A DNA stretch of 64,000 nucleotides from Candidatus Pacearchaeota archaeon (GTDB taxonomy: Archaea; Nanobdellota; Nanobdellia; Pacearchaeales; GW2011-AR1), in assembly GCA_964202455.1 (NCBI GenBank), contig CAXNIJ010000001.1, positions 46,080-110,079 on the forward strand, written 5' to 3'. Every line of letters begins with the position of its first letter. Positions within the stretch are counted from its first letter, which is position 1. Shown one piece after another: positions 2,727 through 34,260 of this stretch. The position numbers were made by a program, and so were the translations under genes. The notes under the pieces are model-generated. The model was not told the origin of the DNA. It ran no database searches and saw nothing but the letters and a program-made list of their open reading frames with translations.

Positions 2727-2775
2727 ACATCTTAAAAAAGAAAATCCTTAATAAACCCTTCTTCCATATAATTTC

Positions 2776-3684
2776 ATGCCAGTCAATCCAGGATACGAAT
2801 ACGTCAATGCAGAAAAAAAATATCTTCAAGCATTAACTCTTGAAGAAAGAATAGTTGCGACTGAAGAAATGATAAAAACTGCTCCAAAACATAAATCTTC
2901 TGAAAATCTCCTCGCACTCTTAAGAACACGTCTAAAAAAATTCCTCGTAAAAAAAGAAAAGAACAAAAAAGTAGGAAAAACTACTCAAAAGAGCATAAGA
3001 AAAGAGGGTTATCAGATAGTCTTATTGGGATTTCCAAACTCAGGTAAATCTTCTCTCCTCAAAGCTCTCACAAATGCCAAGCCTCTAATCAGCCCAATCG
3101 CTTTCACAACAAGAATGCCTGAATTGGGCACCTTAGTTTATCAAGGAGTAAAAGCTCAAATAGTGGACCTTCCAGCAATAGGCGCTGAAACATTTGACAT
3201 AGGGATAGTAAATACTGCAGATTGTATTGTCATTGTAATCGAGTCTCTTCCAGAATATGAAAAAATTCTTTCTCTTCTGCCTAAGTCATACGGTACAAAA
3301 CAAATTGTATTTACAAAAGTTGACCTTCTATCTGAACAGGAAGAGAGAAAACTCCACGCGACTCTAAAGAGCAAAAAAATCCACGCGATTGTCGTTTCGA
3401 CAGAAACTAGGCAAGGAATTCCAGAACTAAAAGAACAAATTTTCCAAAATATGAATGTTATTCGAGTTTACACAAAAGAACCTGGCAAACCTATCGCAAC
3501 AATGCCTCTCGTCTTAGAAAAAAATTCAAGCGTTAAAGATGCAGCAGAAAAAATAGTAAAAGGATTTTCATCAACAGTTAAAGAAACTCGTATTTCTGGT
3601 CCCAGTAGTAAGTTCGCAAATCAGCGCGTCGGCCTTACTCATATCCTAAAAGACAAAGATATTATAGAATTCCACACTTTCTAA
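2776..3684 (+). CDS. OBG/DRG-family GTPase with C-terminal TGS domain
   Basis: G1 motif GFPNSGKSSLLKALT, DLPA(I) G3-like region, and a C-terminal TGS-like segment ending ...DKDIIEFH. Confidence 0.8.
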   Translation: MPVNPGYEYVNAEKKYLQALTLEERIVATEEMIKTAPKHKSSENLLALLRTRLKKFLVKKEKNKKVGKTTQKSIRKEGYQIVLLGFPNSGKSSLLKALTNAKPLISPIAFTTRMPELGTLVYQGVKAQIVDLPAIGAETFDIGIVNTADCIVIVIESLPEYEKILSLLPKSYGTKQIVFTKVDLLSEQEERKLHATLKSKKIHAIVVSTETRQGIPELKEQIFQNMNVIRVYTKEPGKPIATMPLVLEKNSSVKDAAEKIVKGFSSTVKETRISGPSSKFANQRVGLTHILKDKDIIEFHTF

Positions 3685-3806: not shown

Positions 3807-4307
3807 ATGCAAACTTGGCGAGAACTCTACCCTCTAGAAAGCACAAAGCCTCTAAAGAAAACTCTGGGCAGCATATTGGGATTTTTAATATTTATCTTTG
3901 TGGGAATACTATTTTTTACATTTGCAGAATCAAATCAAAATAAAGGAGATTTATCTTTTTTATCTTCATATTGGGTTTGGATATTTACGGCATTTATAAT
4001 TTGGTTCATCTTGAAATACATTTACGAAGTATTCTATATGAAATATTACTTTTATGATGCAACTCCTCAAACTCTCTCAATAAAAAAGGGAGTATTTTCA
4101 AGAAACGAAATAATTCTACCATTTAAGCGTCTTCAAGACGTCTATGTTGATCAAGATATTCTAGATAGAATATTCGGACTATATGACGTTCACGTAAGTA
4201 GTGCAACGGCAACCTCGGCAACACTCTCACATATTGACGGCCTAAACAAAGAAAATGCAGAAAAAGTAAAAACAATACTTCTAAGTAAAATTCACGATGG
4301 CAATTAA
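3807..4307 (+). CDS. Membrane protein with bacterial-PH (bPH_2/YdbS-like) domain
   Basis: Two TM helices, then YFYDATPQTLSIKKGVFSRNEIILPFKRLQDVYVDQDILDRIFGLYDVHV, a typical bPH_2 domain. Confidence 0.6.
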   Translation: MQTWRELYPLESTKPLKKTLGSILGFLIFIFVGILFFTFAESNQNKGDLSFLSSYWVWIFTAFIIWFILKYIYEVFYMKYYFYDATPQTLSIKKGVFSRNEIILPFKRLQDVYVDQDILDRIFGLYDVHVSSATATSATLSHIDGLNKENAEKVKTILLSKIHDGN

Positions 4308-6025: not shown

Positions 6026-6622
6026 ATGAATCTCCTAAAAATTTCAAGCGTTGTTGCAATTCTTTTAGCCTTAATCTTCTTCTCTCATTCTATTCTAAAC
6101 TTACTTGGTTTTGCAGTATCAAATAAAGCAATTACTTTAGATGTAATCCCAGAAAATCTAAAGTCTTTCGTAACTTACATTCTAACAAATTTTCTAACAA
6201 TTATCCGTTCATTCACAATAATGGAATCTCTCTTTGGCGCCCTAATATTTTTTACTTTTGAAAGAATTGCCAAACTAAAAAATCTCCAAGCACTAAGAAT
6301 AACTTCAATTCTAGCATTAATTGCAGTTCTTCTCCCAGGAATTAGTACTTTATTTTCAATGGGTAGTTTCTCATTTATATTTGCAGACAACACAATCTCC
6401 CTAATCCTAGGTTCGACATTTATTTTATTCGGAGTCTCTCTAATAAGAATAAAAACTTCTTCTTGGGAAATGCTCACATCATCTTTAGGAATTCTACAAA
6501 TTCTTGAAGGTCTTGTACTAATTTCCACTTTCTGGATTCCATTGAGACTAGTAGAGTTTTCAATTGCTATTTATATCCTGCAAGCAGTTTTCTTCTGGAA
6601 ATTTAGTAAGTTCAAGAAATAA
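6026..6622 (+). CDS. Polytopic membrane protein, hypothetical
   Basis: 198 aa with about 6 hydrophobic helices. Confidence 0.4.
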   Translation: MNLLKISSVVAILLALIFFSHSILNLLGFAVSNKAITLDVIPENLKSFVTYILTNFLTIIRSFTIMESLFGALIFFTFERIAKLKNLQALRITSILALIAVLLPGISTLFSMGSFSFIFADNTISLILGSTFILFGVSLIRIKTSSWEMLTSSLGILQILEGLVLISTFWIPLRLVEFSIAIYILQAVFFWKFSKFKK

Positions 6623-7769
6623 TCTCATAGTTCATAAAAATCTTCCTAGAGCAATTCATAATTTCAAATTCTAACTCTTTTATCTTAATCATATTTTTTT
6701 CTTTTTTCTTTAATTCTTCCGCAGCTTCATTCTTTAGACTTAAAATCTCTTTCTCTTTCTTATTCAAATCCTCCTCAAATAAAAAAACTTCCTTTTCTCC
6801 ACCATGTAATTCAGGCACAACTTTAAGTTTTCCCACTAATTTATCAATATCCCCCAACTCCAAACTCTGTGCAGATTTCACCATTTCCAGAATTTCTAAA
6901 TGTTCATCTTCAAGAAGAGCGAATCTGAAATTACTTTGATATTTTTTCAGTAAGTTATTTTTCTTTTCATCGTGATGAAAACATTTTCCAAGCAGTTTAA
7001 AATTAATTCTATTTTTCAGAGAATTTAATTCATTTTCAATTACTTTTACATTCAATTCTTTCATTTTAATATCTTTCAAATATTCTTCGCCACTTCTAAT
7101 TTTCTTAATTTGCATTATATTAATTTCAACTTCTTTCTTACATTCACTAATATCTTTGTCTAATCGCGCCTTATCATTTTCTATTTCCTTAGTATGTTTC
7201 TTTTTATCTTCTAATTCATTAAATAACTCTAGAATATATTGAATTTTTTTAGCTTCTTCATTAATCTCTAAATTAATTTTATCACATTTTCTAAAATCTC
7301 TAATAAATGCCCCGATAACTTCTCTTGTGACTCTCATTTCTTCTCCAACTAGAAAAGTGGATTTCTCAAATGGTAAATGTGCAGAAGAATCGAAATCTTT
7401 TAAAATTGAATTGATTTTAATAAAATAATCGTTAGAATCATCTACAAAAGTTCCTCTAAGTTGAGTTATCAACTTTCTTAATAAAGAAATATAAAGAAAA
7501 AGATTTTCTTTTACAATAAATTTTATCTTTTCATGTTCTTTCTTCTTATCAATATCTACTTTTTCTAGTAACTTAATAGGTTCTTGGAGGCTTTCCTCAA
7601 GAATCAAAATATTTTCTTTGACTTCTTTCCTCAATTCCCCATATTTTCTCAAATGCTCTTTCTCTCTTTCCTCAATAATCTGGGGCAATCTTTCAAAATT
7701 GATCTTTTCTTTTTGAATTTCTCCCATGACTTCATTCCTCTGTTTCTTAAAAAGTCCAAACCATGACAT
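6612..7769 (-). CDS. Coiled-coil protein, hypothetical
   Basis: 385 aa, K/E-rich with heptad character throughout; no recognisable catalytic motif. Confidence 0.4.
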   Translation of the reverse strand: MSWFGLFKKQRNEVMGEIQKEKINFERLPQIIEEREKEHLRKYGELRKEVKENILILEESLQEPIKLLEKVDIDKKKEHEKIKFIVKENLFLYISLLRKLITQLRGTFVDDSNDYFIKINSILKDFDSSAHLPFEKSTFLVGEEMRVTREVIGAFIRDFRKCDKINLEINEEAKKIQYILELFNELEDKKKHTKEIENDKARLDKDISECKKEVEINIMQIKKIRSGEEYLKDIKMKELNVKVIENELNSLKNRINFKLLGKCFHHDEKKNNLLKKYQSNFRFALLEDEHLEILEMVKSAQSLELGDIDKLVGKLKVVPELHGGEKEVFLFEEDLNKKEKEILSLKNEAAEELKKKEKNMIKIKELEFEIMNCSRKIFMNYEIIS

Positions 7770-14674: not shown

Positions 14675-15907
14675 TTATAGATACAAGGATTTATGAAGCA
14701 TCTCCTCCGCTTTTTCTAGCACTACAGGGGGAAGCATTAATTTAATCTCTCTGGTTCTTCCCTGCCTCCCTTTACTGATTACTCTAGTATTGATGAGGCC
14801 TAGCATATCAAACTCTCCAAGAATATCTGATACTCTTCTCTGTGTAAGAACCTCATTACGCGTCTTCTCACATAAATCTTGATATGCATTATAAACATCT
14901 CCCGTAAATATTTCTTCAACTTCTTTATTTTTATGGAGTGCTACTGTCGCGGCCAAAACTAATTGAAATTGTTTAGGAACTTTCTCAACGATATCTAGCA
15001 TTTTATCTTTTTCTATCTTCTGATTAGCAGTGTCTATATGTTCAACTCTAATTTTTTTCTCATTTTCTCTCTCAGTTAACTCTCCTGCAACTCTCAATAA
15101 ATCAAGTGCTCTTCGAGCATCCCCGTGCTCTCGAGCTGCATAAGCGGCGCATTTTTCTATAACTCCCTCCGCCAAAACTCCCTCTTTAAATGCCTGCAAA
15201 GATCTGATTCTGAGAATATCTTGTAATTGCAAGGCATTATATGATGGAAATACTAATTCTTCTTCACTCAGAGAACTTCTAACTCTTGGATCTATGTTAT
15301 CCATAAATGTCAGACTATTACTAATTCCAATTATACTTATTTGTGCATTCTTAAGTTCCGAATTTAATCTGGTAAGTGTATAAATAAATCTATCTGAAAT
15401 TTTTTTCACAGCTTCATCAATTTCATCAAGAATAATAATCACTACTTGTTTTTTAACATCTATAAGCTCGATAAATTTAAGATATACTTGATCTGTGGGT
15501 AGTCCTGTGGCGGGAATCGTTCCTTTTAGTTCATGAATCATCTCTGCAACGATTCTATACTCTGTGTCCGCCACCTTTTTTAATTTACAATTTACATAAA
15601 TAAATTGCAAATAATTTTCCCCCATCTCTTTTAGTTTTTCAAGGATTTTATCTCGAACATATTGTACACTTAACGTTTTTCCGCTCCCCGTATTCCCATA
15701 TACAAACAAATTACTAACTCTCTCTCCCCTTAAAGCCGGAGCAAGAATCGACGCCACTGCTTCAACTTGCGCCTCCCTATGGGTGATTTGTTCAGGAGTA
15801 TAGTTGGATTGAAGAACGGATTTATTCTTAAATAAATTATTAGATATAAAAGAACTAAAAATTTTATCCAGTTTATTCATCTCTTTTTCACCTTTGAAAA
15901 TAAACAC
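14675..15907 (-). CDS. cdc6: Orc1/Cdc6 replication initiator
   Basis: Walker A VYGNTGSGKTLS, Walker B IIILDEID, sensor regions and a C-terminal winged helix; the presumed origin lies immediately upstream. Confidence 0.95.
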   Translation of the reverse strand: MFIFKGEKEMNKLDKIFSSFISNNLFKNKSVLQSNYTPEQITHREAQVEAVASILAPALRGERVSNLFVYGNTGSGKTLSVQYVRDKILEKLKEMGENYLQFIYVNCKLKKVADTEYRIVAEMIHELKGTIPATGLPTDQVYLKFIELIDVKKQVVIIILDEIDEAVKKISDRFIYTLTRLNSELKNAQISIIGISNSLTFMDNIDPRVRSSLSEEELVFPSYNALQLQDILRIRSLQAFKEGVLAEGVIEKCAAYAAREHGDARRALDLLRVAGELTERENEKKIRVEHIDTANQKIEKDKMLDIVEKVPKQFQLVLAATVALHKNKEVEEIFTGDVYNAYQDLCEKTRNEVLTQRRVSDILGEFDMLGLINTRVISKGRQGRTREIKLMLPPVVLEKAEEMLHKSLYL

Positions 15908-16329
15908 CTTTTCTCATTATAAACATATCGCTTTTCTAAGCTTCATTTCCACTGAAGAAGAAGAAAATATAAAAGAAAAAAGACTAATTCAAACAAATTA
16001 TCTTAAAATAACAGACACCCTCATTTCCACTCGAGAATAATCTTTTTTTAATCTTCAAATCTTCAAATTAACACGAATAAATATAGATACTATATACTAT
16101 ATACTATATACTATATACTATACTATACAAAACTTTATAAAGGAAAAGAAGAGAAAGAAAAATCCCTCTATCCTTTTTAAACATTTTCTTTTTCTCCATA
16201 CGCAACCATGGGGTCACACCCCCCACAACTTCAAGACTCGTCTTCTCACCTCATAATCTTCCAGTCACACGTTCCCAAGAGTAAAAAAAACAGGCAAAGA
16301 TTTATATACAAAAGCTTTCTCCAGTACAT
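15908..16329. promoter_or_regulatory. Candidate replication origin (oriC): two ORB-like boxes plus an AT-rich tandem-repeat DUE
   Basis: TTCATTTCCACTGAAG (15942-15957) and TCATTTCCACTCGAG (16021-16035), same orientation, resemble the archaeal ORB core (reverse strand CAGTGGAAATGAA). A (TATATAC)n tandem repeat at 16086-16128 lies between cdc6 and the next gene. Confidence 0.65.
16086..16128. repeat. Heptamer tandem repeat (TATATAC)x5-6 inside the candidate origin
   Basis: actatatactatatactatatactatatactatactatac read directly. Confidence 0.8.
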
Positions 16330-21590: not shown

Positions 21591-22361
21591 ATGGATCCCA
21601 TTAAAGAAGCTTTCACGAGGGCAAAACAAGACATTCAAGAACTAAAAGATCAGTTAACCCTATTATCTCAAGAGACTCAGTTTCTTAGGCAAACTCTCGA
21701 TGATATCCTCTTTCATCGGCAGCTCCAGCAAGCTTTTCCATCAGACAGACAGACAGACCAACACTCCAGCACACTTCAAACTCCAAAGTCTACCTCGATT
21801 CCAGCACAAACCTCTCAAAACCCATCAATCAAGCAGGAAACTCCAGCACTCCAGCACATAGATTCCAGCACTCCAGCACAAAATAACCCTTTAAAACCTC
21901 TAAAAGACCAGTTTTCAGTATTCTCCACTGGAAATGAGGGGGTTCCAGCAGACAGACAGACAGACAGACAGACAGACCAGCAGACACAAAATAGCGAGAA
22001 AATCGACTTAGAAACCCTTCATGAGCATACCTTTCAGCACATAACTGACGCTATAGATACCCTAGATCAAGCAAAAAAAGAAGTTCGTTTAAAATTTAAA
22101 CGCTTTACTAAACAAGAAATGGAAGTTTTTGGAGCAATATATTCCTACGAAGAGCGGGGACTTATCGTCGATTACGCTCTTCTTGCGCAAAAACTTGGCC
22201 TGACCGAGAGTTCTATCCGCGATTATGTTCAAAAACTCATCAAAAAAGGCGCACCGATTGTAAAAACTAAGGAAAACAATAAGAGGATCCTTCTTAAAAT
22301 CGATCCTAACCTCAAAAAAATCGCATCTTTACAAACAATTCATCAATTAAGAGAACTCTAA
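21591..22361 (+). CDS. Coiled-coil / low-complexity protein with C-terminal wHTH; contains two (CAGA)n microsatellites
   Basis: 256 aa; DRQTDRQTDQQT encoded by (CAGA)7 at 21949-21976 and (CAGA)4 at about 21742-21758; the C-terminal 90 aa are HTH-like and paralogous to the C-terminus of 22735..23376. Confidence 0.45.
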   Translation: MDPIKEAFTRAKQDIQELKDQLTLLSQETQFLRQTLDDILFHRQLQQAFPSDRQTDQHSSTLQTPKSTSIPAQTSQNPSIKQETPALQHIDSSTPAQNNPLKPLKDQFSVFSTGNEGVPADRQTDRQTDQQTQNSEKIDLETLHEHTFQHITDAIDTLDQAKKEVRLKFKRFTKQEMEVFGAIYSYEERGLIVDYALLAQKLGLTESSIRDYVQKLIKKGAPIVKTKENNKRILLKIDPNLKKIASLQTIHQLREL

Positions 22362-22504: not shown

Positions 22505-22805
22505 TCCTCTCACTTTTTGACCGCATCAGGAAGATCGTTCATTTGCTCCCATCTTCCCTCACTTTTGGATACTTTCCTTCACTTCTGGAAGGTTTTTTAT
22601 ACGTCGAGAATCAAATATTCTCGATCGTACTCAAAATCTCCTCACTTTTGGAAGGTTTTTGATACCGAAAAAGGCATAAACCGGTAAAAAATGAGAACCA
22701 CAACTCTCACTTTTCACTATTTTTGCTCATTTTATCATGAAACTTCGTTTAATCTATCATTAACACGAACTCGCTTACTTTTCCCAACCCTCACTTTTGC
22801 GTATT
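22505..22805. repeat. Iteron-like array of at least 6 copies of CTCACTTTTGG, including a 24-bp imperfect direct repeat
   Basis: Copies near 22510, 22557, 22578, 22640, 22709, 22790; cacttctggaaggttttttatac / cacttttggaaggtttttgatac are 63 bp apart; lies between convergent wHTH genes. Confidence 0.6.
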
Positions 22806-23376
22806 TTGCGAGTTTTTCCCTTATTTCTTCAGGTACAAAGACCCTCTTTTTCCCTGTTTTCTCACTTATTTCCTCTAGTAGTCCTTCACTCTTCTGTTTT
22901 ATAGCATTTATCTGTCCTCTTATAGTAGATTTCTCTTTACCCAAAAGCAAGGCTAAATCTTCATAACTTAACTTCAAATCGCTATTCATCAGAGTCATTA
23001 TCAACAGTCTTTCATTTGCGGTTAAACCTTTCAAAATATCATAAATATTGCCTGTTTGAACAGGCATCTGAACAGCTTTTTCAACACCATAATCAGCTGT
23101 CTGTTTGCCTAAAACAGGCAATTTTTCAAACAACTGTTGATGTTTTTCATCATTTTTCAAAGATTCAACTTCTTCATGCAAAGCACCAAGATCAGTTTTA
23201 ATCGTCGCTATTTCAGATTTTAATGAAGAAAGTAAAGAAAACACCTGTTTGTCTTGTCCATCAAGGTGTTTGATCCACTTTCCAACCACATCAATATCAT
23301 TTTTAACTGCAGAGAAGCCTTGGCGAATTTCATCACTAGAATTATTTTCCTTCTTTTTGAATAACCAGTTGAACAT
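22735..23376 (-). CDS. Coiled-coil + C-terminal wHTH putative regulator
   Basis: 213 aa; C-terminus LTANERLLIMTLMNSDLKLSYEDLALLLGKEKSTIRGQINAIKQK has the same architecture as 21591..22361. Confidence 0.45.
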   Translation of the reverse strand: MFNWLFKKKENNSSDEIRQGFSAVKNDIDVVGKWIKHLDGQDKQVFSLLSSLKSEIATIKTDLGALHEEVESLKNDEKHQQLFEKLPVLGKQTADYGVEKAVQMPVQTGNIYDILKGLTANERLLIMTLMNSDLKLSYEDLALLLGKEKSTIRGQINAIKQKSEGLLEEISEKTGKKRVFVPEEIREKLAKYAKVRVGKSKRVRVNDRLNEVS

Positions 23377-24358
23377 ATCTATATTACTCGTTCGAGTATT
23401 TATAAACCTTTCGGTATCTCCTCACTTTATCGTCGATAAATAGACGTCAAAAATCAACAAAAAGTCTGACTAAAAATAGAGAAAAACACTCTAAAACACC
23501 AAACAACATCATTCAAACACCTTAGATGCTTAGTCAAACACTCAACATCTTACTTTAAACACCCGTTCAAACATCCCCAAACACCTTCAACCTAGATCAA
23601 ATTTTACCAATCATCGTCGACAAATTTTGGCAAAACCCCTAAACTAATCTATGGGGCAAAAAGTCTACACTTTACTATTGTTCAAATATCTGCCTTTTTT
23701 CTCTCAAAGAATAAAGAGTTTCATAGCCCGCTTTTTAATAAACTCCTTGCTTCCAAAGCAGAATTTCAAAAAAATTCATCCAGATATAAGTTTTTAAGTT
23801 TTCACAAGACCTCAACTCTATGAATCTTCCTTAACGTTGACCTTTAGACTCAGAATATCAGATATATCTTCAAATTTTTAGGGGAACAAGTACCAAAGAT
23901 CTACAAAAAGCACTAGATTATCACCAAAGCAGCCGTTCTTTCATAACAACACTTCCCCTTAGCGTTGACCTAGTCTCCAAAACACTACATGTTCGTGTTT
24001 AGAAGAGGTTCTTTCACAAAGAAACGCTCTTTCAAACATTCCGACCATCTCAAAACACTCATCCAAACATCAATTTTAATCTAGATAAACCCAAAGAGTT
24101 AAATACTTCCACAGGTTTAATCAATTATGCCTAAAAAAGAAGCAGACCTCACAGCGATTTTATCCATTATAGCAGGTTTTATCATCCTAATCTGGCCCAA
24201 CATACTAGGCATAGCAGTAGGTCTTTTCCTTCTAATCACTGGAATACTAGATTTAGCAAGAAAAACCAAGTGATTTCTCCAGTTTAATTCTTTTCCTTTC
24301 GCTAGTAATTTTCAGCATAAAAGAAACCGCAAGATTTATATACTTCTTACGTATATCC

Positions 24359-24700
24359 ATGTGTATGAAAATAAGTAAGGAAGATATTATCAGGATAGGA
24401 AAAGGTTTTGGAGGAGAACTGCGAAACGATGCAAGTATAGAGTTTGCTTTGGAAAAGCAGGAAAATGTCAAACTCGGAGAGTATAAGAAGCTAGCTTATT
24501 TGATTAGAGCAATAGTAATTGATCATCCATTCACAGATGGAAACAAAAAAACGGCTGCATACATCGTTTTTGTTTTCGCCGAACAATTCAATAAACAAGT
24601 AGATCTTGAGCTTATTAAAGAGCAAATGATTTCAATTGCAAGTAAAAACATCAATAGTATTCGAGCAATCGAGGAGAGACTAAAAAATGTCCTTAACTGA
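24359..24700 (+). CDS. doc: Doc/Fic-family toxin
   Basis: HPFTDGNKKTA matches the Doc motif HxFx(D/N)GNKR; 113 aa. Confidence 0.8.
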   Translation: MCMKISKEDIIRIGKGFGGELRNDASIEFALEKQENVKLGEYKKLAYLIRAIVIDHPFTDGNKKTAAYIVFVFAEQFNKQVDLELIKEQMISIASKNINSIRAIEERLKNVLN

Positions 24701-24905
24701 ACAAGAAATACAGAGAATATTCAAAAAATACAAAGAAGTATTTGAAGAAATGGAGCACTATGACCAAACCCGCGAAAAGCTTTGGGAAAAGAAACGTATC
24801 GACATCACACTTACTCATCGTCTCATTAAGAAGTTAAAGGCCCTAAGCAAACAAACAGGCAAACCCATTTCTCATATTATAGAGGAAGCAGTTACTAAGT
24901 TATAG
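24687..24905 (+). CDS. Ribbon-helix-helix (CopG-like) putative antitoxin partner of Doc, encoded downstream of the toxin
   Basis: 72 aa; RIDITLTHRLIKKLKALSKQTGKPISHIIEEAV is RHH-like; 14-nt overlap with doc. Confidence 0.45.
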   Translation: MSLTEQEIQRIFKKYKEVFEEMEHYDQTREKLWEKKRIDITLTHRLIKKLKALSKQTGKPISHIIEEAVTKL

Positions 24906-25067
24906 TCCCAGCCAACACTTCCAAACACCTGTTTGCCCCGTTTATCGTCTATACATTTTCTAATCCCAACACCTACCAATACCTCTGTTTTCTCCTCCTT
25001 TCCCACCCATTCCCCCTCCATTTTAAACACCTATTTGCCCGTTTGTCCTAAACCATAACTTCAAACC

Positions 25068-25096
25068 AAGTGAGGCGCGAAGCGCCGAACGCGCCC
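25068..25096. repeat. GC-rich twin-hairpin element gtgaggcgcgaagcgccgaacgcgcccga (family B core), copy 1
   Basis: Identical 29-mer at 26899-26927; both are preceded by aacttcaaa and followed by a TATA-like box and a gene start. Confidence 0.7.
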
Positions 25097-25137
25097 GACC
25101 ACCTAAATATATAAAAATCGTTCTAAGAATAAGAGTT

Positions 25138-25467
25138 ATGGACGAAAAATCTCCCATCGAATTAATTCTCTTAGAATACCGGTGCAGAGATTTCGACGAT
25201 CGTACAATTATCTTAAGAATTAAGAATGCTCCCTTTGGGGCGAGCAGAATTCAGCAAGTTGCATGGGGCGTGAGTCCAAGTTTTCCTGCAGGAAATCCTC
25301 CTGTTTTCCCAATATACTATGAAGTGACAGGGTTCAGTCAAGAAGGAAATAGTCGTGTGATGAGATTGCCCCATAGCGGAGAACTAGTAGATTACAAGCC
25401 CTCATTTGAAGAAGCATTCAAGAGAGCATATGCGTTAGCAAAGGAACGGGCTTTGGAATATACCTGA
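25138..25467 (+). CDS. Hypothetical cassette protein
   Basis: 109-aa ORF preceded by the family-B repeat and a TATA-like box. Confidence 0.4.
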   Translation: MDEKSPIELILLEYRCRDFDDRTIILRIKNAPFGASRIQQVAWGVSPSFPAGNPPVFPIYYEVTGFSQEGNSRVMRLPHSGELVDYKPSFEEAFKRAYALAKERALEYT

Positions 25468-25717
25468 CCATTTTCACATGCTCCAGAATATGATCCTTCA
25501 AGAGCACACATATTTGATAGAACCTCTTTCGGAAATCTTTCCCCCTCAGATTCAGACGATCCTTGTCATAAGCTCTGGTATACACCTATTTGGTATCCTG
25601 AAATATAATTTAGATGTTCGCACAAGCTACATTAACCGAAGTATTGGCACATTTTAAGGGATTTCAGAGTGTTTTTTGAGGCGAAAGAGTTAAATAGACT
25701 CAGAAAATGAATAAATC

Positions 25718-26080
25718 ATGACTTGGACTACCCTCACTATCTCAAATAATAAAGAGTATGCCTTATTAGCAGAACAATATTTTAAGGAAGATCGTCGTAG
25801 GGAACCTGGAGAATATACGTCTTCAGGTTGGTTAAGAAGGCAAGCGAGATTAGGGATCTATAGTCTATTAATGAATTGCTTATCCGATCCGACTCATTTT
25901 ATGAAAGTAACTCAATTTATCAATTCAAATTCGATTGGAGAAGTAGTTAGATTGGTCGAAACGTTTAGAAATGGTCATCAAGAGAATTTAGCGACATATT
26001 TCGGTTGGAGTGATTTAAGTACAATTCAAAGAAAGATAGACTTAAGGAATGAGTTACTTGCTAAACTGTTTCAAGCGTAA
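25718..26080 (+). CDS. Hypothetical cassette protein
   Basis: 120-aa ORF followed directly by the intercassette repeat. Confidence 0.4.
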   Translation: MTWTTLTISNNKEYALLAEQYFKEDRRREPGEYTSSGWLRRQARLGIYSLLMNCLSDPTHFMKVTQFINSNSIGEVVRLVETFRNGHQENLATYFGWSDLSTIQRKIDLRNELLAKLFQA

Positions 26081-26158
26081 TCTTCCTCCCTTTTCTTAAA
26101 ACTTTCAGCATAAAGGAAAAACCGAAATATTTATATATCAGTTATACATCGAGTATAC

Positions 26159-26392
26159 ATGGCAGAAGAATCAACTATCCTCTTAGACAAGAAAGTAATT
26201 GAGCAACTTAAAGAAGCGAAAGAATATCCTCGCCAGACATACAATGAACTTCTTAATAAAATGACTCATCTTTTCATAACTCTCAAAAAACAAAAAGAGA
26301 GACAATACGACCGTTTTCTCTTTGAAATACAAAAGAAAAAGATGAGAGAACTCTGGGATAATGAATATGATGAAGTTTGGGAGAAAGTATAA
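26159..26392 (+). CDS. Putative antitoxin (same family as 259..465 and 28400..28618)
   Basis: TILLDKKVIEQLKEAKEYPRQTYNELLNKM; overlaps the MazF ORF by 32 nt. Confidence 0.6.
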   Translation: MAEESTILLDKKVIEQLKEAKEYPRQTYNELLNKMTHLFITLKKQKERQYDRFLFEIQKKKMRELWDNEYDEVWEKV

Positions 26393-26687
26393 GTTTGGCG
26401 ACGTTATTTTAGCGTCGGTCCAGTATACAGATACATCGGAGATTAAAACTCGTCCTGCACTGGTGCTCTTTGAAGAGCATGAAAATATTGTAATTGCAGG
26501 GATAACGAGTAATCCTCATATGCAAGGTATTTCTCTTACTAAACAAGAAGGAATGGTCGCAGAGAGTATTGTTAAACTGAATTATATTATGACTCTCACA
26601 GAATTAATGGTCAAGAAGTATCTCTTCACGATTTCAGAAGAGAAAAAACAACAAATTAAGGATGAATTTTGCAAGAAGCTACAATAA
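26361..26687 (+). CDS. mazF: MazF/PemK-family toxin (endoribonuclease)
   Basis: GDVILASV...TRPALVL...IVIAGITSN matches the PemK/MazF fold signature; 108 aa. Confidence 0.85.
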   Translation: MNMMKFGRKYKFGDVILASVQYTDTSEIKTRPALVLFEEHENIVIAGITSNPHMQGISLTKQEGMVAESIVKLNYIMTLTELMVKKYLFTISEEKKQQIKDEFCKKLQ

Positions 26688-26964
26688 AATTTGAATCCAA
26701 ACCCTTACGAAAAGATCATGAACGGGGATTCATTGTTCCAGACAAGCTTACATCTAGCTTGGATCTTAAAGGAGGTGAAAAATTGCTTTCGCCCTCTTGA
26801 AATATTAGGGATTTTTAGAGGTTGTTTTAAACAGCTGTTTGTTCGTTTAATCATTCAAAAACCTGTCCCCTTTCCTAGAACAATAACTTCAAATCTCTGT
26901 GAGGCGCGAAGCGCCGAACGCGCCCGATCGAAAGAATTAAATATATCGGAGCATACAAATAGAT

Positions 26965-27183
26965 ATGACTTATCAGGTAGTTGTGGGAATTCTATTATCT
27001 GTTCTTGGTCTTCTTGTTTGTATTTTCCCAAAGTCATTTTCGGGGTTCCTTAGTACTAGTAAAAATATTTTGGGAAGAAATTTTAAAGAAAAGTTGGGTG
27101 AAAGCAAAGGAAAAATAATTACGATTGTCTGGAGTATAATTATCTCAATATTGAGTCCAATTGCCATCTTTACATCGAAATAG
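26965..27183 (+). CDS. Small membrane protein, hypothetical
   Basis: 72 aa with 2 TM helices; preceded by family-B repeat copy 2 plus an AAATATAT box. Confidence 0.3.
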   Translation: MTYQVVVGILLSVLGLLVCIFPKSFSGFLSTSKNILGRNFKEKLGESKGKIITIVWSIIISILSPIAIFTSK

Positions 27184-27370
27184 AATCAATTTAGAAGATA
27201 ATTTGTAAAAGGGCGCATAATCTACCTTAGACGAACCTTTAGAGCTCTTTTTCGCCCCAAAAGTTCGCTTTTTTATTTGTTGACATTAACTTTGTTGTAT
27301 TGCCCTATAAACAACGATCTTTTTGAGTTTTGAGGGAAAGATTTAATAATATTCATCAAGCCAGAGAGAT

Positions 27371-27736
27371 ATGGACAGTGCACCATTTATACATCCTCAA
27401 CCAGACTTAGGAAAATATCTTGCAAGTTTTGTAGGCGGTACCAGCAGATATCGAGAAGCACGTTCTTCCGATAACAACGTTGTTGTGGGAGAATTTATGA
27501 TTGAACATTTGAAAAGAAAATTGCCTCTAGAACAGCTTGAGGCAATAGTACGAGAATATTTGCTAAGAAGGGGATTCCTAGATGTCACAGAAGGATCAGA
27601 AGAGACGACATCAGATATCAATTCAAGCTCTCGAAAGTATTTTCATCCCACCTATTCTCAGACTCATAATTGGAAGGTATTAGTCAACGTTCCTGGTTCT
27701 CGTAAAGACATTTCGGTAAGTTGGTCCATTTACTAG
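27371..27736 (+). CDS. Hypothetical cassette protein
   Basis: 121-aa ORF; intercassette repeat immediately downstream (27770-27808). Confidence 0.4.
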   Translation: MDSAPFIHPQPDLGKYLASFVGGTSRYREARSSDNNVVVGEFMIEHLKRKLPLEQLEAIVREYLLRRGFLDVTEGSEETTSDINSSSRKYFHPTYSQTHNWKVLVNVPGSRKDISVSWSIY

Positions 27737-27769
27737 AAAAGCAATATTAGTGCCTGAATATTATTAACT

Positions 27770-27808
27770 TCTCTTAAAACTTTCAGCATGCTCAAAGAGT
27801 TCGTTTAA
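27770..27808. repeat. Intercassette repeat family A (TCTCTTAAAWC-tttcagca-N-caaagagttcGTTTAA); this is the reference copy
   Basis: Related copies at 24296-24328, 26093-26124, 28277-28316, 28339-28368, 28886-28924, 29432-29465 and partially at 113-124. Confidence 0.65.
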
Positions 27809-27870
27809 TTATATAAAAAACTATTCTTCCCAACACAAATATTTATATATCTCTAGAATACCTCAATATA

Positions 27871-28266
27871 ATGGGAAAAACACAAAGACTTCGACATATT
27901 CAGCCAACTCATGGAGACAGGAATTATTTTATTTATGATGATGACAAAGGAAATGAGGTTTTTGCCTTTCCAACACCCATAGGTTCTCCAACAATATTTT
28001 CTGCCAGAGACGAGAATGGAGAGTCATTTAATGAGGCTGCAGTTAGAAGCGAATTAATTTCCCGTGCCAGGTTTATAGAAAGAACAGAAGGATTACATCT
28101 TAGAACCATCAACTCATATACTGCTATTCGCGTACATTTTGGAAATTTTCCCACTATAAAGACTAGTGATAGGCCCTCTTTAGAGGTAGATTTAGAAATA
28201 TATGGTGTACAATTTTACCAATCCACATTTTTAGATCGCAAATCTACTAAAAAAAGACCAGCGTAA
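27871..28266 (+). CDS. Hypothetical cassette protein
   Basis: 131-aa ORF; TATA-like box about 30 nt upstream; repeat downstream. Confidence 0.4.
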   Translation: MGKTQRLRHIQPTHGDRNYFIYDDDKGNEVFAFPTPIGSPTIFSARDENGESFNEAAVRSELISRARFIERTEGLHLRTINSYTAIRVHFGNFPTIKTSDRPSLEVDLEIYGVQFYQSTFLDRKSTKKRPA

Positions 28267-28399
28267 TCTTTCTGCTCTCTCTTAAATCTTTCAGCACATT
28301 CAAAGAGTTCGTTTAATATAAACTTAATCTTCTTCCTTTCTCTTAAATCTTTCAGCACAAAGGAAAAGTTTATAAACTATAACAAATTATATAATTGAT

Positions 28400-28618
28400 A
28401 TGGAACAAACAACTATTCAAATAAGTAAAACTCTCTTGGAACAGCTAAAGTTACGAAAGATGACTAAAAAAGAGAGCTATGAAGGAATTATTTGGGATTT
28501 GCTTGAAGATACAATGGAGTTATCCGATGAAACAAAACGCGCGATCGAAGAAGGAAGAAAGCAGATACTTGAAGAAAAAGTTGTTTCTTTTGAAGATTTG
28601 AAACGAGAGTTCCAGTAA
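28400..28618 (+). CDS. Putative antitoxin (third paralogue)
   Basis: TIQISKTLLEQLKLRKMTKKESYEGIIWDLLED; the stop lies 1 nt before the RelE start. Confidence 0.6.
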   Translation: MEQTTIQISKTLLEQLKLRKMTKKESYEGIIWDLLEDTMELSDETKRAIEEGRKQILEEKVVSFEDLKREFQ

Positions 28619-28619
28619 T

Positions 28620-28874
28620 ATGCACTACCAGATCTCTTTTTCTGAACAAGCAGCCAACTTTATTAGAAAATTAGACAAATCTCAAAGAGAACGAATTTTC
28701 GCCGTTCTCGAAAGAATCAAAATTCGTCCAGAAGATTTCGTTGAAAAACTAGTTGGAGAACAGGGGTACAAGCTCCGCATAGGAGATTATCGATTATTTT
28801 TAGATATTCAACAGAATACTATTATTATCTTCGTCGTAGAAGTCAGGCATCGAAAAAATGCGTACAAAAAATAA
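28620..28874 (+). CDS. relE: RelE/StbE-family toxin
   Basis: 84 aa; ...KLRIGDYRLFLDIQQNTIIIFVVEVRHRKNAY is a RelE-like C-terminus. Confidence 0.8.
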   Translation: MHYQISFSEQAANFIRKLDKSQRERIFAVLERIKIRPEDFVEKLVGEQGYKLRIGDYRLFLDIQQNTIIIFVVEVRHRKNAYKK

Positions 28875-28920
28875 TACTCTCCCTTTCTCTTAAATCGTTC
28901 AGCATCTCCAAAGAGTTCGT

Positions 28921-29199
28921 TTAAACTGCCCAATAGTCTGGAATATCAAATCCATCATCATTCAGTGATTTTTTTAATTCAGGATCATTCCATTCACAAA
29001 CAATAAGCTGAAACTGAGAAATGGAAGGTGAATAAAGACAACGAACATCAGCAAGAACAGCATTTCTACCTCTACTTTCTAAAAAAAGCAAAAAATCTAG
29101 ATTTGTTTCATATATTTTACCTTTAGTATTTTTAACAAAAGCCAAAGAAAAAGGAACGTCTCCACTAGAATCAGCAAGATACGGATTTTCATCCCCCAA
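28921..29199 (-). CDS. Hypothetical protein. The frame continues upstream to ATG 29406 through an in-frame TAA (29296-29298), so this is a possibly disrupted gene of about 160 aa.
   Basis: Translation of the minus strand gives MKEVHEDYLLLPGMSLFKKCNVLVYNCKNIRDFVDN*DRIETTSAPFFSRAKEYNGLAIINF...; an overlapping ORF 29097..29309 in another frame is probably spurious. Confidence 0.3.
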   Translation of the reverse strand: MGDENPYLADSSGDVPFSLAFVKNTKGKIYETNLDFLLFLESRGRNAVLADVRCLYSPSISQFQLIVCEWNDPELKKSLNDDGFDIPDYWAV

Positions 29200-29731
29200 T
29201 ATTGCACGAAGATTATTTGCAAAGTTGATAATTGCGAGCCCATTATATTCTTTGGCGCGACTAAAGAAGGGCGCAGAAGTTGTTTCAATTCTATCTTAAT
29301 TATCAACAAAGTCTCGAATGTTTTTACAATTATACACTAGAACATTACATTTTTTAAATAGAGACATTCCAGGCAATAAAAGATAATCTTCGTGTACTTC
29401 TTTCATAATAACTTTACACAAATAGATGTTTTTAAAACTAACCAATATTCAAAGGGTTCGTTTAACTCCAATTTCCTCCTTCTCTGCCTCTGAATTTCAC
29501 TCAAGATTCATCTTCCATAACCCTTAAATACCAAGGTAATTTAGGTATATTAACACCTCTTTTCCCCAGAAGAGGACGTTTCATCACCTTTTTGATCGAT
29601 GGAGCCTCCTCTTATGGGTTTAATATTCTACGATTATACCTGCAAACAGCTGTTTACGAAACGTTTTTAAACAAACATTTTCTTAAACAGCTGTTCAGAA
29701 GGAAAAATATTCTTTCTCGCAAAAAATTACA

Positions 29732-31285
29732 ATGGAACTCGCTATATCGAAAGTAAGTTTAAAGCAACACGAAGGGAAAACTATTTCCCTAGCTGGAATT
29801 ATAGATAGCGTCGCGCAAACAACAGGTCCAACACTCTTTTCTCTTATAGACGGATCGGGAACACTCATGTTAAAAGGATTTGACGGCGCAGGAGTGAGAG
29901 CATTTCCACAAATAAAAGAAGGAGACACTGTAAAAACTATGGTTCAAGTCAAGGAATTTCAAGGTTCTTTAGAAGGGGAGATAATACGAATAACAAAGCT
30001 TGAGGGCCCGACGTCAGAACAACTTAGAAAAGACATAGAAGCAGAAGAAAGAAAACGAGCAACAGTTGTACCAATACCTTTCTTAGTAAAAAGCCAAATA
30101 CTCGATAAATTAAAAGAGAGATATATCCAGGCAGCTACAGAAATTCGTCTTGCAGTTGTGAAAAACAGACCAATTATAGTTCGTCATCACAATGATTGCG
30201 ATGGATACAGTTCAGGATATTCATTAGAAAGAGCAATTATTCCTCTAATTATTAAACAACACGGTGGAGGGAAAGCTCCTTGGGAATATTTTACACGTTC
30301 TCCCTCGATGGCGCCATTCTATGAGATTGAAGATTCAATAAAAGATACTGCAAATTCTCTTCGTGATGTCGCAAAATTCTCAAATAAAATGCCTTTAGTA
30401 GTTATTGTAGACACAGGTTCAGGTTCAGAAAGTCTTTTAGGCATTAGACAAGGAAAAATTCACGGGGCAGATTTTATAGTAGTGGATCATCACTTTTTCG
30501 AGGAAGACGTAACTTCTCCAGAAGTTTTAGTCCATGTAAATCCATTTGTAGTCGGAGAAGATGGGGCGAAGTTTTCAGCAGGAATGCTTTGCACAGAACT
30601 TGCTCGTTTTATTAATCCAGAAGTAATGGTTGATCATCTTCCAGCTTTATCTGGAATGGCAGATAGAATCGATAATCCAACGGTAATTACAGAATATCTT
30701 AAAATTGCAGAAAAGAAAGGATATAATAAAGAGTTATTAGAAGACATTGCATCACTTATAGATTATGTAAGCACAAAGCTAAGATTTATGGAAGCACGAG
30801 AATATATCGAAGTGGTTTTCGGCGACCCAATTGACAAACAAAAAGCGCTTGTTTCTCTTATGAATCCATTTATCAGGACTATGCAAAAACGCGGACTTGA
30901 AATTGCAAAGTCTACAGTCAAGAGAGAGAAAATAGGTCAATGTACCTTACAGTTACTTTTTGTAGAAGAAACATTTTCAAGAAATGCCTATCCCAAGCCA
31001 GGACAAGTTGTGGGAATGCTTCATGATTTCTTTCAAGAAAAAGAAAAGAACAAAAATGTAGTATCTATCGGAGTATTAAGCGATCTTGTAACTATTCGGG
31101 CAACAGAAGAGTCAAAATTCATAGTACACGATTTTCTTTCAGTTCTTCAGAAAAATGTTCCAGAGGCATTTCCAGAGGGTGGAGGACATAAAAGTGCAGG
31201 CGCACTTAGATTTGTTCCAGCTCAAAGAGAGAAGGTATTAGTCGCGTTAAGAACATACCTAACAAAGGTCCAATCAGGAAAGTAA
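29732..31285 (+). CDS. DHH-family phosphoesterase with N-terminal OB-fold (RecJ/Cdc45/GAN-like nuclease)
   Basis: 517 aa; DHH motifs (VRHHNDCDGYSSG; VDHHF) and a DHHA1-like C-terminus (GGGHKSAGA). Confidence 0.65.
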   Translation: MELAISKVSLKQHEGKTISLAGIIDSVAQTTGPTLFSLIDGSGTLMLKGFDGAGVRAFPQIKEGDTVKTMVQVKEFQGSLEGEIIRITKLEGPTSEQLRKDIEAEERKRATVVPIPFLVKSQILDKLKERYIQAATEIRLAVVKNRPIIVRHHNDCDGYSSGYSLERAIIPLIIKQHGGGKAPWEYFTRSPSMAPFYEIEDSIKDTANSLRDVAKFSNKMPLVVIVDTGSGSESLLGIRQGKIHGADFIVVDHHFFEEDVTSPEVLVHVNPFVVGEDGAKFSAGMLCTELARFINPEVMVDHLPALSGMADRIDNPTVITEYLKIAEKKGYNKELLEDIASLIDYVSTKLRFMEAREYIEVVFGDPIDKQKALVSLMNPFIRTMQKRGLEIAKSTVKREKIGQCTLQLLFVEETFSRNAYPKPGQVVGMLHDFFQEKEKNKNVVSIGVLSDLVTIRATEESKFIVHDFLSVLQKNVPEAFPEGGGHKSAGALRFVPAQREKVLVALRTYLTKVQSGK

Positions 31286-34172: not shown

Positions 34173-34260
34173 GCCTCTATAGCTCAGCGGTAGAGCACCA
34201 GTTTCGTACCGATATATGCGAAGAAACTGGGGGTCGGGGGTTCAATCCCCCCTAGAGGCT
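34173..34260 (+). tRNA. tRNA-Thr (anticodon CGU) with a 16-nt intron at the canonical 37/38 position
   Basis: Acceptor GCCTCTA/TAGAGGC; D arm GCTCAGCGGTAGAGC; anticodon stem CCAGT/ACTGG; loop TTCGTA|intron 34209-34224|A; T arm GGGGG TTCAATC CCCCC; no encoded CCA. Confidence 0.8.

Follow-up and report, generated by a model that had tools for sequence, protein, structure and literature searches.

The DNA examined was a 64-kb stretch (hereafter the window) of a contig from a Pacearchaeota (DPANN) archaeon, a tiny symbiotic archaeon. About 10 self-promoted units lie in it between two conserved genes, and the units are separated by a bipartite motif consisting of an L-arm (..TCTTAAAWCTTTCAGCA), a fixed 9-nt spacer and an R-core (AGTTCGYWTTAA). 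Numbered loci (L003, L013 and so on) are related loci used for comparison. The distal flank (22735–23376, minus strand) is divergent from the array and encodes a 213-aa coiled-coil plus wHTH protein, predicted by a structural model to consist of a long helix, a linker and a wHTH, with a weak Lrs14-like match (E = 0.028). It is present in 21 element-bearing loci and has 2096 homologues at 60–83% identity. The proximal flank (29732–31285, plus strand) is an archaeal RecJ-like (OB + DHH) gene, and arrays lie directly upstream of it in L003, L006, L007, L010, L011 and L056.

All units except the last are on the plus strand. Unit 1 (24127–24273) encodes a 48-aa DUF3096 small membrane protein (1.4e-6) that is also the first unit in L013, and homologues sit at other array positions in L003, L013 and L018. 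Unit 2 (24359–24905) consists of a Doc/Fic toxin (24359–24700; Fic, 4.3e-6) and an RHH protein (24687–24905; RHH_3, 2.1e-8), and the same pair occurs in other contexts in L010, L011, L056, L067 and L070. Units 3 (25138–25467; 109 aa) and 4 (25718–26080; 120 aa) encode proteins of unknown function without a Pfam hit, though a family homologous to the unit 3 product is present among array cargo elsewhere. Unit 5 (26159–26687) pairs a DUF7557-like antitoxin (26159–26392; 3.6e-4) with a MazF/PemK toxin (26361–26687; PemK, 1.5e-7), and is found in L011, L013, L038, L041 and L086 with different neighbours. Unit 6 (26965–27183) encodes a 72-aa predicted membrane protein and has a TATA box at −28, and unit 7 (27371–27736) a 121-aa protein of unknown function; neither gave a Pfam hit. 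Unit 8 (27871–28266) encodes a 131-aa protein of unknown function that shares 42% identity with the product of L003 8901–9263, which is at a different position. Unit 9 (28400–28874) includes a DUF7557-like antitoxin (28400–28618) and a ParE/RelE toxin (28620–28874; ParE_toxin, 2e-9); it is the first unit in L003 but the last plus-strand unit here. Unit 10 (28921–29403, minus strand) is a reverse-oriented gene in one frame with an in-frame TAA, hence a probable pseudogene, and had no Pfam hit.

A solitary toxin-antitoxin (TA) unit lies outside the island at 195–845 (plus strand). It includes a DUF7557-like antitoxin (259–453) and a ParE-like toxin (453–791) with only a weak ParE match (0.0025), and direct reading of the sequence showed an L-arm-like sequence upstream and a decayed element downstream. 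The 21-nt string GAAAAGTTTATAAACTATAAC is identical at about 214–234 and at 28361–28381, so that this unit shares its promoter with unit 9. The three antitoxins align over the N-terminal motif at 24–33% identity, and all match DUF7557 below the Pfam cut-off (E 4e-4 to 2e-3). Thus, the TA content described in the initial annotation, in which one antitoxin family is paired with ParE-like, MazF and ParE/RelE toxins and a Doc-RHH unit is also present, was confirmed.

Boundary motif, promoters and hairpin modules

A profile (nhmmer) search of the window with a model of the element returned six significant copies, all on the plus strand and between 24.3 and 28.9 kb, whereas ten shuffled sequences gave no hits. 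Full copies (L-arm, 9 nt, R-core) are found at 27758–27808 (3.4e-12), at 28265–28316 (2.6e-14), beginning in the stop codon of unit 8, and at 28873–28924 (1.4e-12), where the R-core overlaps the stop codon of the reverse gene. L-arm-only copies are found at 26079–26119 (2.5e-9), starting at the stop codon of unit 4 and fused to the promoter of the MazF TA unit, at 28326–28370 (1.6e-11), fused to the promoter of the ParE TA unit, and at 24287–24325, a weak copy (1.4e-4) fused to the Doc-RHH promoter. L013 has the full version in front of the same MazF TA unit, while the fusion at 28326–28370 travels with its TA unit and is seen in L056, L086, L038, L010, L041 and L062. The last boundary (29426–29465, plus strand) has an R-core (29446–29465) with a degenerate L-arm, and the conserved flank starts about 30 nt after it, as judged by alignment with L003 9712 and L006 604, where the same flank follows. 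Exact-pattern counts in the window were 5 for TCTTAAAWCKTTCAGCA (0.2 expected), 4 for TCAAAGRGTTCGTTTAA (0.09 expected) and 6, all on the plus strand, for GTTCGTTTAA (0.22 expected). These copies match the seven positions given in the initial annotation, and its observation of small genes separated by a repeat is real, and larger than was reported.

On the plus strand, an R-core (GTTCGTTTAA) is also directly joined to a palindrome, designated K (TTTAAACAGCTGTTT), at 26825–26850. A decayed K palindrome plus R-core (AAACACCTGTTTGCCCCGTTTATCG; D3 family), also on the plus strand, follows the Doc-RHH unit at 24919–24950, and was aligned by eye with the intact versions in L056 and L010 (TTTAAACAGCC..AGAGTTCGTTTAATC). 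TATA-like boxes sit at −28 to −31 from the ATG in 8 of 10 array genes, with a ninth seen by eye. A further module, P1, includes an A-rich box, a GGCGC-GAA-GCGCC hairpin and the BRE/TATA of the next gene. It was recognised from an exact 29-nt repeat and is present on the plus strand at 25047–25116 and, upstream of unit 6 and 34 nt after the R-core, at 26875–26945 (nhmmer 3e-18). Related loci include 72 copies of P1, all on the plus strand, and 58 of 60 unique copies keep a perfect GC stem.

The recJ-proximal end of the array is marked by a promoter and a candidate sRNA with a hairpin of about 75 nt (29515–29625, plus strand; fold z = −4.0). Comparison of 18 copies gave 18 pairs, 6 of them compensatory, and there was no Rfam hit. 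Pairwise alignment of the window with L013 revealed a decayed distal copy of this element at 23690–23760 (plus strand), which is intact in L003 (6517–6626) and L013.

The letters TTAAAWC...GTTTAA, read in the initial annotation as inverted ends, are present, but the inverted-repeat reading is no better than chance, as 78.0% of cells pair against 78.6% in shuffles. The element is asymmetric and bipartite, and its universal part is the R-core next to the stop codon and not a 40-bp palindrome. RNAalifold predicted no consensus structure, the proposed R''/R' pairing showed no covariation, and ssDNA folds were −1 to −4 kcal/mol with z from −0.8 to +1.0 on both strands. A dif-like dyad was likewise not found, 7.28 of 11 positions pairing against 7.08 in shuffles.

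Variation of the array among related loci

The motif bounds small genes at the same locus in about 60 related contigs. It recurs in 5 DPANN MAGs and about 50 metagenome contigs, with every copy on one strand within a locus, whereas viral contigs gave no hit. In 422 kb of related loci, 67 L+R copies are on the array strand and none on the other, and R-only copies number 90 against 17. The R-core is tied to the preceding stop codon (median 25 nt) and not to the next ATG (25–300 nt). However, about half of the forward ORFs lack a detectable R-core within 75 nt of the stop, and L-only and R-only junctions are common; hence boundaries are not as precise as in integrons. The polarity of the R-core follows the array and not the gene: of 34 reverse genes, 8 have an array-sense and 2 a gene-sense R-core, while 68 of 143 forward genes have one.

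Gene content and order differ between these loci. Among 157 non-identical junctions, 52 pairs share only the upstream gene family, 12 only the downstream and 1 both, and the 222 array ORFs fall into 132 families, of which 100 are singletons. Conservation of gene order in relatives had been set beforehand as the outcome that would count against a cassette array; it was found within the same species population, where five or six assemblies show an identical array, but not between species. There is therefore no evidence of ongoing shuffling. Recent mosaics break at the modules. In L040, a 354-bp gene is inserted between a stop codon and the L-arm start relative to L037, with 97% flanks, and a unit that is 93% identical in L082 and L088 loses homology exactly after its AGTTCGCACAA. 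At 75–85% identity, however, homology ends are noisy. One TA family occurs with a full element, an L-arm only, an R-core only or P1 on its flanks, which indicates recombination within the modules.

No recombinase, transposase or HUH enzyme was found in the window or among array cargo, and no integrase at any of about 60 related loci, consistent with the caveat in the initial annotation that no tyrosine recombinase was visible in the window. The neighbouring wHTH gene is a highly conserved core gene with no catalytic domain.

Comparison with known systems and interpretation

The interpretation in the initial annotation, that the layout is reminiscent of integron or mobile cassette arrays, is partly supported: the array is genuinely cassette-like, but the attC-like reading fails. 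Sedentary chromosomal integrons, such as the Vibrio superintegron with VCR repeats, similarly have a long head-to-tail array of small, mostly unknown ORFs with many TA units at one fixed chromosomal site, a repeat highly similar within and between related genomes after each ORF, content that differs between related species but is stable within a strain, and site polarity set at the level of the array. Here, however, there is no IntI and no attI, the 52-nt repeat is asymmetric and does not fold, its core is GTTCGYW and not GTTRRRY, the units carry their own promoters, and many junctions have only half of the element. Archaeal integrons and CALINs (Ghaly et al. 2022, PMC9668308) also occur in Nanoarchaeota/Pacearchaeales, with attC sites in a few Pacearchaeales MAGs, have cargo enriched in TA and defence genes, and mostly lack an adjacent integrase. 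Those arrays were detected through canonical attC sequence and structure and recombine with IntI1, whereas the sites here fail the structural criteria, and the motif strings did not occur in the supplementary tables of that study that were searched. The pdif modules of Acinetobacter plasmids and other Xer-dependent elements are likewise discrete small modules, often TA pairs or single genes, bounded by short conserved sites and re-assorted between replicons without an element-encoded recombinase. Sites of the dif type are 11-6-11 dyads (PMC2958812). They also alternate in orientation, whereas the sites here have no dyad and share one orientation. Islands built by tandem integration at tRNA genes, such as the Prochlorococcus tycheposon islands, resemble this one in being hypervariable at a fixed site, with an RNA gene duplicated at the borders and small accessory genes as cargo, but here the inter-unit repeat is not derived from the RNA gene, there are no integrases, and the units are an order of magnitude smaller. 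Pairing of one antitoxin family with ParE/RelE-fold and MazF-fold toxins is a well-known property of type II TA systems. Nothing unusual was found in the TA biology itself, and the novelty lies in the array and its boundary modules.

A serious, though less favoured, alternative is that the modules are regulatory parts and not exchange sites. In this view, the L-arm/R-core would be a 3'-end, insulator or repressor-binding signal and P1 an upstream promoter element, which together would keep potentially toxic accessory genes separately transcribed or co-silenced, perhaps through the adjacent wHTH proteins, and the island would vary only because it is an ordinary hotspot between core genes. The start of the element at or a few nt after stop codons, the BRE/TATA of the units, the position of P1 immediately upstream of promoters, the wHTH genes (two flank the island in 17–21 loci), the lack of a recombinase and the static array within a species are in keeping with this possibility. 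An R-core also follows the conserved 256-aa gene in at least 9 loci, which fits a gene-end signal as well as it fits a recombination site. However, the motif is absent from the other roughly 58 kb of the window and from the flanks of related loci, which argues against a general terminator, and its polarity follows the array for reverse-oriented genes. It has neither the T-run typical of archaeal terminators nor RNA structure, its distance to the next promoter varies from 25 to 300 nt, and nucleotide-level conservation next to unrelated genes persists across genomes whose RecJ is only about 70% identical.

The remaining explanations appear unlikely. Successive insertion of integrative elements, now decayed, into a small-RNA gene, with the hairpin sRNA as the attachment target, would account for the sRNA copies at both ends of the array in L003 and L013, the decayed distal copy in the window and the three copies inside the array of L062. 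However, the repeat between units is unrelated in sequence to the sRNA, no integrase or integrase remnant was seen in any array, units of 300–700 bp are far smaller than integrative elements, and the sRNA copies are complete genes with their own promoters and not partial att duplications. Similarly, MITE-like or hairpin-dependent (IS200/IS605-derived) miniature elements that landed between genes are suggested by the very stable GC hairpin of P1, with a GNA loop and a stem kept through flips, by one P1 copy split by an insert of roughly 230 bp with inverted termini, and by a TnpB-like gene in one locus. This is difficult to reconcile with copies that are all on one strand, confined to one locus and positioned at stop codons, with the lack of terminal inverted repeats or a hairpin in the L-arm/R-core, and with the absence of target-site duplications and of a Y1 or HUH transposase in the searches made. 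A true integron-type array of attC sites serviced by an IntI encoded elsewhere, as reported for some archaea, is the least likely. It is suggested by the same-orientation small ORFs separated by a repeat, the TA-rich and mostly unknown cargo and the content that varies between relatives, but is already largely refuted by the sequence and structure data above, the units' own promoters and the lack of an IntI in the window or among array cargo.

The reading preferred here, at a probability of about 0.5, is a lineage-specific cassette island of Pacearchaeota, a few kb from the probable replication origin, in which small self-promoted units (TA pairs, small membrane proteins, occasional nucleases and many proteins of unknown function) are stacked head to tail at one site between two core genes. 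Most units are closed on their 3' side by the R-core, a polar, unstructured duplex motif, preceded in about 40% of cases by the L-arm (..AATCTTCCTCCYTTCGCTTAAAWCTTTCAGCA) and often followed by P1 with its C-rich linker, GC hairpin and promoter. The analysis establishes this architecture, the conservation of the motifs across many genomes, their strand polarity and the re-assortment of units between species. By contrast, it is an inference that the shared boundary modules are the places where units are joined and exchanged, either by a sequence-specific protein that has not been identified or by short-homology recombination with incoming related DNA. Likewise by inference, the motif would work as a sequence read by a protein and not as a folded attC, and the TA units would help the stack persist.

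The repeat element and its chromosomal setting

The window is part of a 339-kb metagenome contig (ENA ERZ27280223 k141_458911), and homologues of its RecJ-like protein come from Pacearchaeota/Nanoarchaeota MAGs. The G+C content is about 35%. The surrounding genes encode core replication functions, namely PolD DP1 and DP2, Cdc6/Orc1 (14675-15907, minus strand), OapB and OapC, an Lhr helicase, FttA, and Rad50/Mre11. A region at about 15940-16125, located between cdc6 and the OapB/OapC genes with PolD next door, contains two ORB-like repeats (TCATTTCCACTGAAGAAGAA) and an AT-rich TATACTA tandem, and is probably the replication origin. The array therefore starts about 8 kb from this probable origin, and its genes point away from it. 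Further downstream, tRNA-Arg(TCG) at 34173-34260 spans 88 nt while the Rfam model is matched end to end, and hence this gene probably contains an intron.

The repeat described in the initial annotation is real, and its positions agree with those found here. Exact patterns for its two halves occur 5 and 4 times, as compared with 0.2 and 0.09 expected, and a profile built from the copies found six significant matches in 64 kb, all on the + strand and all between 24.3 and 28.9 kb, with none in shuffled sequence. The element is bipartite and 52 nt long as a whole, consisting of an L-arm, AATCTTCCTCCYTTCGCTTAAAWCTTTCAGCA, a 9-nt variable spacer, and an R-core, AGTTCGYWTTAA. Full copies are at 27758, 28265, and 28873. 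L-arm-only copies, fused directly to a TA promoter, are at 26079 and 28326, with a weak one at 24287, and R-cores without a recognisable L-arm are at 26841 and 29455.

Eight of ten array genes have a BRE/TATA-like box at -28 to -31 from the ATG, and a ninth was seen by eye. The toxin-antitoxin (TA) assignments of the initial annotation hold, as toxin domains with adjacent small antitoxin genes in one operon were identified (PemK, 1.5e-7; ParE_toxin, 2e-9; Fic/Doc, 4.3e-6; RHH_3, 2.1e-8), though toxicity is predicted from sequence alone. The three small antitoxins align with one another through a shared N-terminal motif, and all give sub-threshold DUF7557 hits. The promoter string common to about 214-234 and 28361-28381 is identical over 21 nt, and the solitary TA unit at 195-845 also carries L-arm-like and decayed element sequences. 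The reverse-oriented unit at 28921-29403 (minus strand) is a single reading frame interrupted by one in-frame TAA after codon 36, and is either a pseudogene or a case of stop-codon read-through.

The element starts in, or a few nucleotides after, the stop codon of the preceding ORF. The R-core lies a median of 25 nt from the stop, or 35-55 nt when an L-arm intervenes, and 25-300 nt from the next ATG. This wide variation ruled out the R-core as an upstream activating site or TATA box of the next gene. A coding explanation for the L-arm, either as a conserved C-terminal peptide or as an antisense ORF starting at ATG/GTG-CTGAAAG, was also rejected, as stops cluster at the element start, conservation is not three-periodic, and the downstream antisense sequence is unrelated.

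In at least 20 junctions, a second conserved module, P1, begins 25-37 nt after the R-core and consists of a C-rich linker, AATAGCCTCAATAA, a GGCGC-GAA-GCGCC hairpin with a GNA-type loop, and then the BRE/TATA of the next gene. P1 is found in the window at 25047-25116 and 26875-26945, and there are 72 copies in related loci, all on one strand. Of 60 unique copies, 58 keep a perfect 4-6-bp G+C stem with a GAA/GCA-type loop, the stem sequence being flipped (GCGCC/GGCGC, GGCC/GGCC) or shortened in several. One flip separates two units that are otherwise 93% identical. Covariation in stems A and C of P1 is weak or absent. In L007 (one of the related loci, designated L), a P1 copy at about 3992-4250 is split by an insert of about 230 bp whose ends are inverted repeats (GGCTACATC...GATGTAGCC), and which may be a small mobile element or an intron-like insert. 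A third recurrent module is the palindrome TTTAAACAGCTGTTT (K), which appears in front of some R-cores and twice in the recJ-like promoter. The perfect palindrome AAACAGCTGTTT, at 26828, 29645, and 29685 in the window and also in L003, L006, L056, and L086, looks like a binding site for a dimeric regulator. No Rfam family was found for the element or for P1.

About 30 nt after the last R-core, the sequence becomes conserved between genomes. It encodes a candidate hairpin small RNA of roughly 75 nt with its own archaeal promoter, TTTAAATA (29515-29625, + strand). Eighteen copies give a consensus fold of -23 kcal/mol with 18 pairs, of which 6 have compensatory changes, and there is no Rfam match. 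The RNA marks one or both ends of the arrays. Copies are at 6517-6626 and 9769-9879 in L003 and at 4224-4331 in L013 (oriented), and L062 has three. In L003 and L013 a second copy lies at the distal end of the array, and in the window that copy has decayed. No complementarity between the RNA and the L-arm or R-core was found by inspection. The 750-bp non-coding stretch between the wHTH gene and the first unit (23440-24100) is filled with short CAAACAC-type repeats, which are also present in L003 and L037.

Array content and order in related loci

The context of RecJ-like orthologues was retrieved, and in every case an array of small same-strand genes lies directly upstream of the recJ-like gene. 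The array includes 6-7 genes in L003 (83% RecJ identity), at least 24 genes over more than 10 kb in L007 (70%), and 4 genes next to a ribosomal-protein operon in L011 (66%). An array is also present in L010 (69%), while in L006 (85%) the contig is cut close to the gene. In L003, the flanks are syntenic with the window on both sides, but the content is different and re-ordered. The ParE TA unit is first instead of last, DUF3096 is third instead of first, the 131-aa family sits at another position, and the other genes are unrelated. The element itself is conserved at the nucleotide level next to unrelated genes in all of these loci.

A scan of one genome per species found exact matches to L-arm plus R-core in five DPANN MAGs, each with 2-5 copies on one strand, whereas bacterial hits were single chance matches. 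A metagenome scan returned 60 contigs, about 50 of them low-GC with genuine copies and mostly from groundwater, and viral contigs gave no match. In 422 kb of oriented, non-redundant loci, L-arm plus R-core copies occur 67 times on the array strand and never on the other, and R-cores alone occur 90 times on the array strand and 17 times on the other. The R-core is therefore the universal part and the L-arm is optional. The most frequent large neighbours are the 213-aa wHTH gene (21 loci, always divergent), the 256-aa wHTH gene (17), Lhr (8), and RecJ-like (6).

Among 157 non-identical junctions, 52 pairs share the upstream gene family but not the downstream one, 12 pairs share only the downstream family, and a single pair shares both. 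The 222 array ORFs, of which 166 are on the array strand, fall into 132 families, 100 of them singletons. About one sixth of family representatives have a Pfam hit, and these are mostly TA parts (ParE, PIN, Fic, PemK, MazE, RHH, HTH, DUF2283/DUF4258), with small membrane proteins and one LAGLIDADG endonuclease. A zinc-ribbon family with a weak HNH endonuclease match (Pfam E=0.001) recurs in eight loci (e.g. L029 794-1321 and L086 2051-2596). It and the LAGLIDADG unit are candidate drivers of break-induced exchange.

Identity in the L-arm region is higher when the upstream family is the same, and nothing downstream of the R-core correlates with the upstream gene. This places the unit boundary at or just after the R-core. 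Two recent mosaics are informative. Relative to L037, L040 has a 354-bp gene inserted between a stop codon and the first base of the L-arm, with 97% identity to the left and 88% to the right, and a unit shared by L082 and L088 loses homology exactly after its R-core variant AGTTCGCACAA. The same TA family is found with a full element, an L-arm only, an R-core only, P1, or nothing on either flank. The modules therefore recombine among themselves, and boundaries are less precise than in integrons. No strain-level polymorphism was seen, the array being identical in five or six assemblies of the same species, and so turnover is slow.

Comparison with known recombination sites

An attC site is an imperfect inverted repeat (R''-L''...L'-R') that folds as single-stranded DNA into a hairpin with extrahelical bases, has core sites RYYYAAC and GTTRRRY, and is about 57-141 nt long. 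RNAalifold predicted no pairs on 50 copies of the element. The TTAAAWC/GTTTAA pairing proposed in the initial annotation gave 78.0% paired cells against 78.6% in column shuffles, with covariation of 0.105 against 0.108. Window copies fold as ssDNA at only -1 to -4 kcal/mol, with z from -0.83 to +1.04 on both strands. The consensus is ..TTAAAWC.. and AGTTCGYWTTAA, in which the core reads GTTCGYW and not GTTRRRY. Thus, the attC or hairpin reading was rejected.

The IntI tyrosine recombinase is usually adjacent to, and divergent from, an integron array. No integrase, resolvase or transposase was found in the window or among 99 representatives of array cargo families. The divergent neighbour is instead a coiled-coil plus wHTH protein of 213 aa, belonging to a very conserved core family of these archaea with 2096 homologues at 60–83% identity. 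A structure model, at low confidence, showed only a coiled coil plus wHTH, and gave no support for a hidden enzyme. Isolated mobile-element-type genes, identified by reading the sequences, lie near some arrays, but among about 60 loci only one reverse-transcriptase-like ORF (L038, oriented, 2532-3209), one TnpB-like ORF (L059, 6422-7582) and one XerA-like tyrosine recombinase (L078, 3547-4377) were seen, none of them recurrent. The same-orientation small units with content that varies between relatives do agree with an integron array, though, unlike most integron cassettes, the units carry their own promoters. The archaeal integrons described by Ghaly et al. (PMC9668308) rest on canonical attC structure and IntI, and the motif strings reported here do not occur in the supplements of that study that were examined. 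No description of this array type was found in the literature that could be searched.

The dif site is 28 bp with two 11-bp inverted arms around a 6-bp spacer (PMC2958812). The best 11-nt arm complementarity in the element is 7.28 of 11, as compared with 7.08 +/- 0.81 in shuffles, and no fixed-register dyad exceeds 5.5 of 11. Sites flanking Xer/dif-type modules (pdif, IMEX) alternate in orientation, whereas the full copies here are on one strand (67 against 0). MITE and IS200-IS605-derived elements have terminal or subterminal hairpins or inverted repeats and are dispersed in both orientations. The L-arm/R-core has neither feature, and its copies are confined to one locus and one strand, although the P1 hairpin leaves a hairpin-dependent mechanism not fully excluded.

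Interpretation of the boundary modules

The initial annotation was correct in its observation, which extends beyond one window. Its interpretation was partly supported, since the cassette-like layout and the TA content hold but the attC-like reading does not. A clade of Pacearchaeota maintains a repeat-bounded stack of self-promoted small genes near the probable replication origin, and the units re-assort between species. In outline this works like a chromosomal integron, but the array fails every structural test for integrons, and also the tests for Xer/dif modules and for MITE/IS200-type elements. The architecture, its conservation, the polarity of the motif and the re-assortment of units were shown, whereas the mechanism, like the toxicity of the TA units, is inferred. 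Exchange at the shared boundary modules, by an unidentified protein or by short-homology recombination, is favoured (probability about 0.5).

The main rival is a purely regulatory or insulator role for the modules, which is less likely but remains possible. Of forward array ORFs of at least 60 aa, 68 of 143 have a same-sense R-core within 75 nt of the stop, whereas of 34 reverse ORFs only 2 do, and 8 have an array-sense R-core there. The window's reverse gene at 28921 is an example. A general archaeal terminator or 3'-end signal occurs after genes across the genome, in the orientation of the gene. Significant profile matches in the window are confined to the island, and the motif lacks both a T-run and any structure. 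Taken with the polarity, this argues against an ordinary terminator and for a polar DNA-level signal. Two findings point the other way, namely the identical arrays within a species and an R-core that follows the stop codon of the conserved 256-aa wHTH gene in at least 9 related loci. Within that gene (21591-22361 in the window), CTTTCAGCA and AGTTCGTTTAA both occur at 22028-22092, and the R-core string there encodes EVRLKF and is kept in 8 of 17 orthologues. An island formed by integration into an RNA gene has direct repeats of the target RNA gene at both ends, plus an integrase. The copies of the hairpin RNA at both array ends in L003 and L013, with a decayed copy in the window, could mean that the island grew inside or next to an RNA-gene target. 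However, the inter-unit repeat is unrelated to this RNA and no integrase was found.

A further hypothesis, not excluded but doubtful on present evidence, is that Pacearchaeota carry a previously undescribed cassette-capture system that is analogous to an integron but mechanistically unrelated. In this view, a polar, unstructured duplex site (the R-core with or without the L-arm) would be the joining point for self-promoted gene units at a landing pad near the replication origin, and an unrecognised protein would service it. Candidates are the locus-linked coiled-coil/wHTH proteins, or the HNH and LAGLIDADG nucleases that ride in some arrays and could drive exchange through break repair. The P1 GC hairpin and the flanking hairpin sRNA would be accessory parts of the system.

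DPANN archaea have tiny genomes and depend on hosts, and how they acquire and turn over accessory genes is poorly understood. This locus shows that a whole clade reserves one chromosomal slot for a changing set of small genes, and that the slot is built from a handful of conserved non-coding modules that no database recognises. If the boundary motif is an exchange site, this would be a second, independent solution to the problem that integrons solve, and would also offer a simple sequence handle (AGTTCGYWTTAA, CTTTCAGCA) for harvesting hundreds of unknown small proteins, TA pairs, and possible defence or host-interaction factors from metagenomes. If the motif is regulatory, it would define a new archaeal cis-element set and a candidate regulon for two conserved wHTH proteins. 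Either way, the hairpin sRNA candidate and the P1 hairpin are new conserved RNA or DNA structures.
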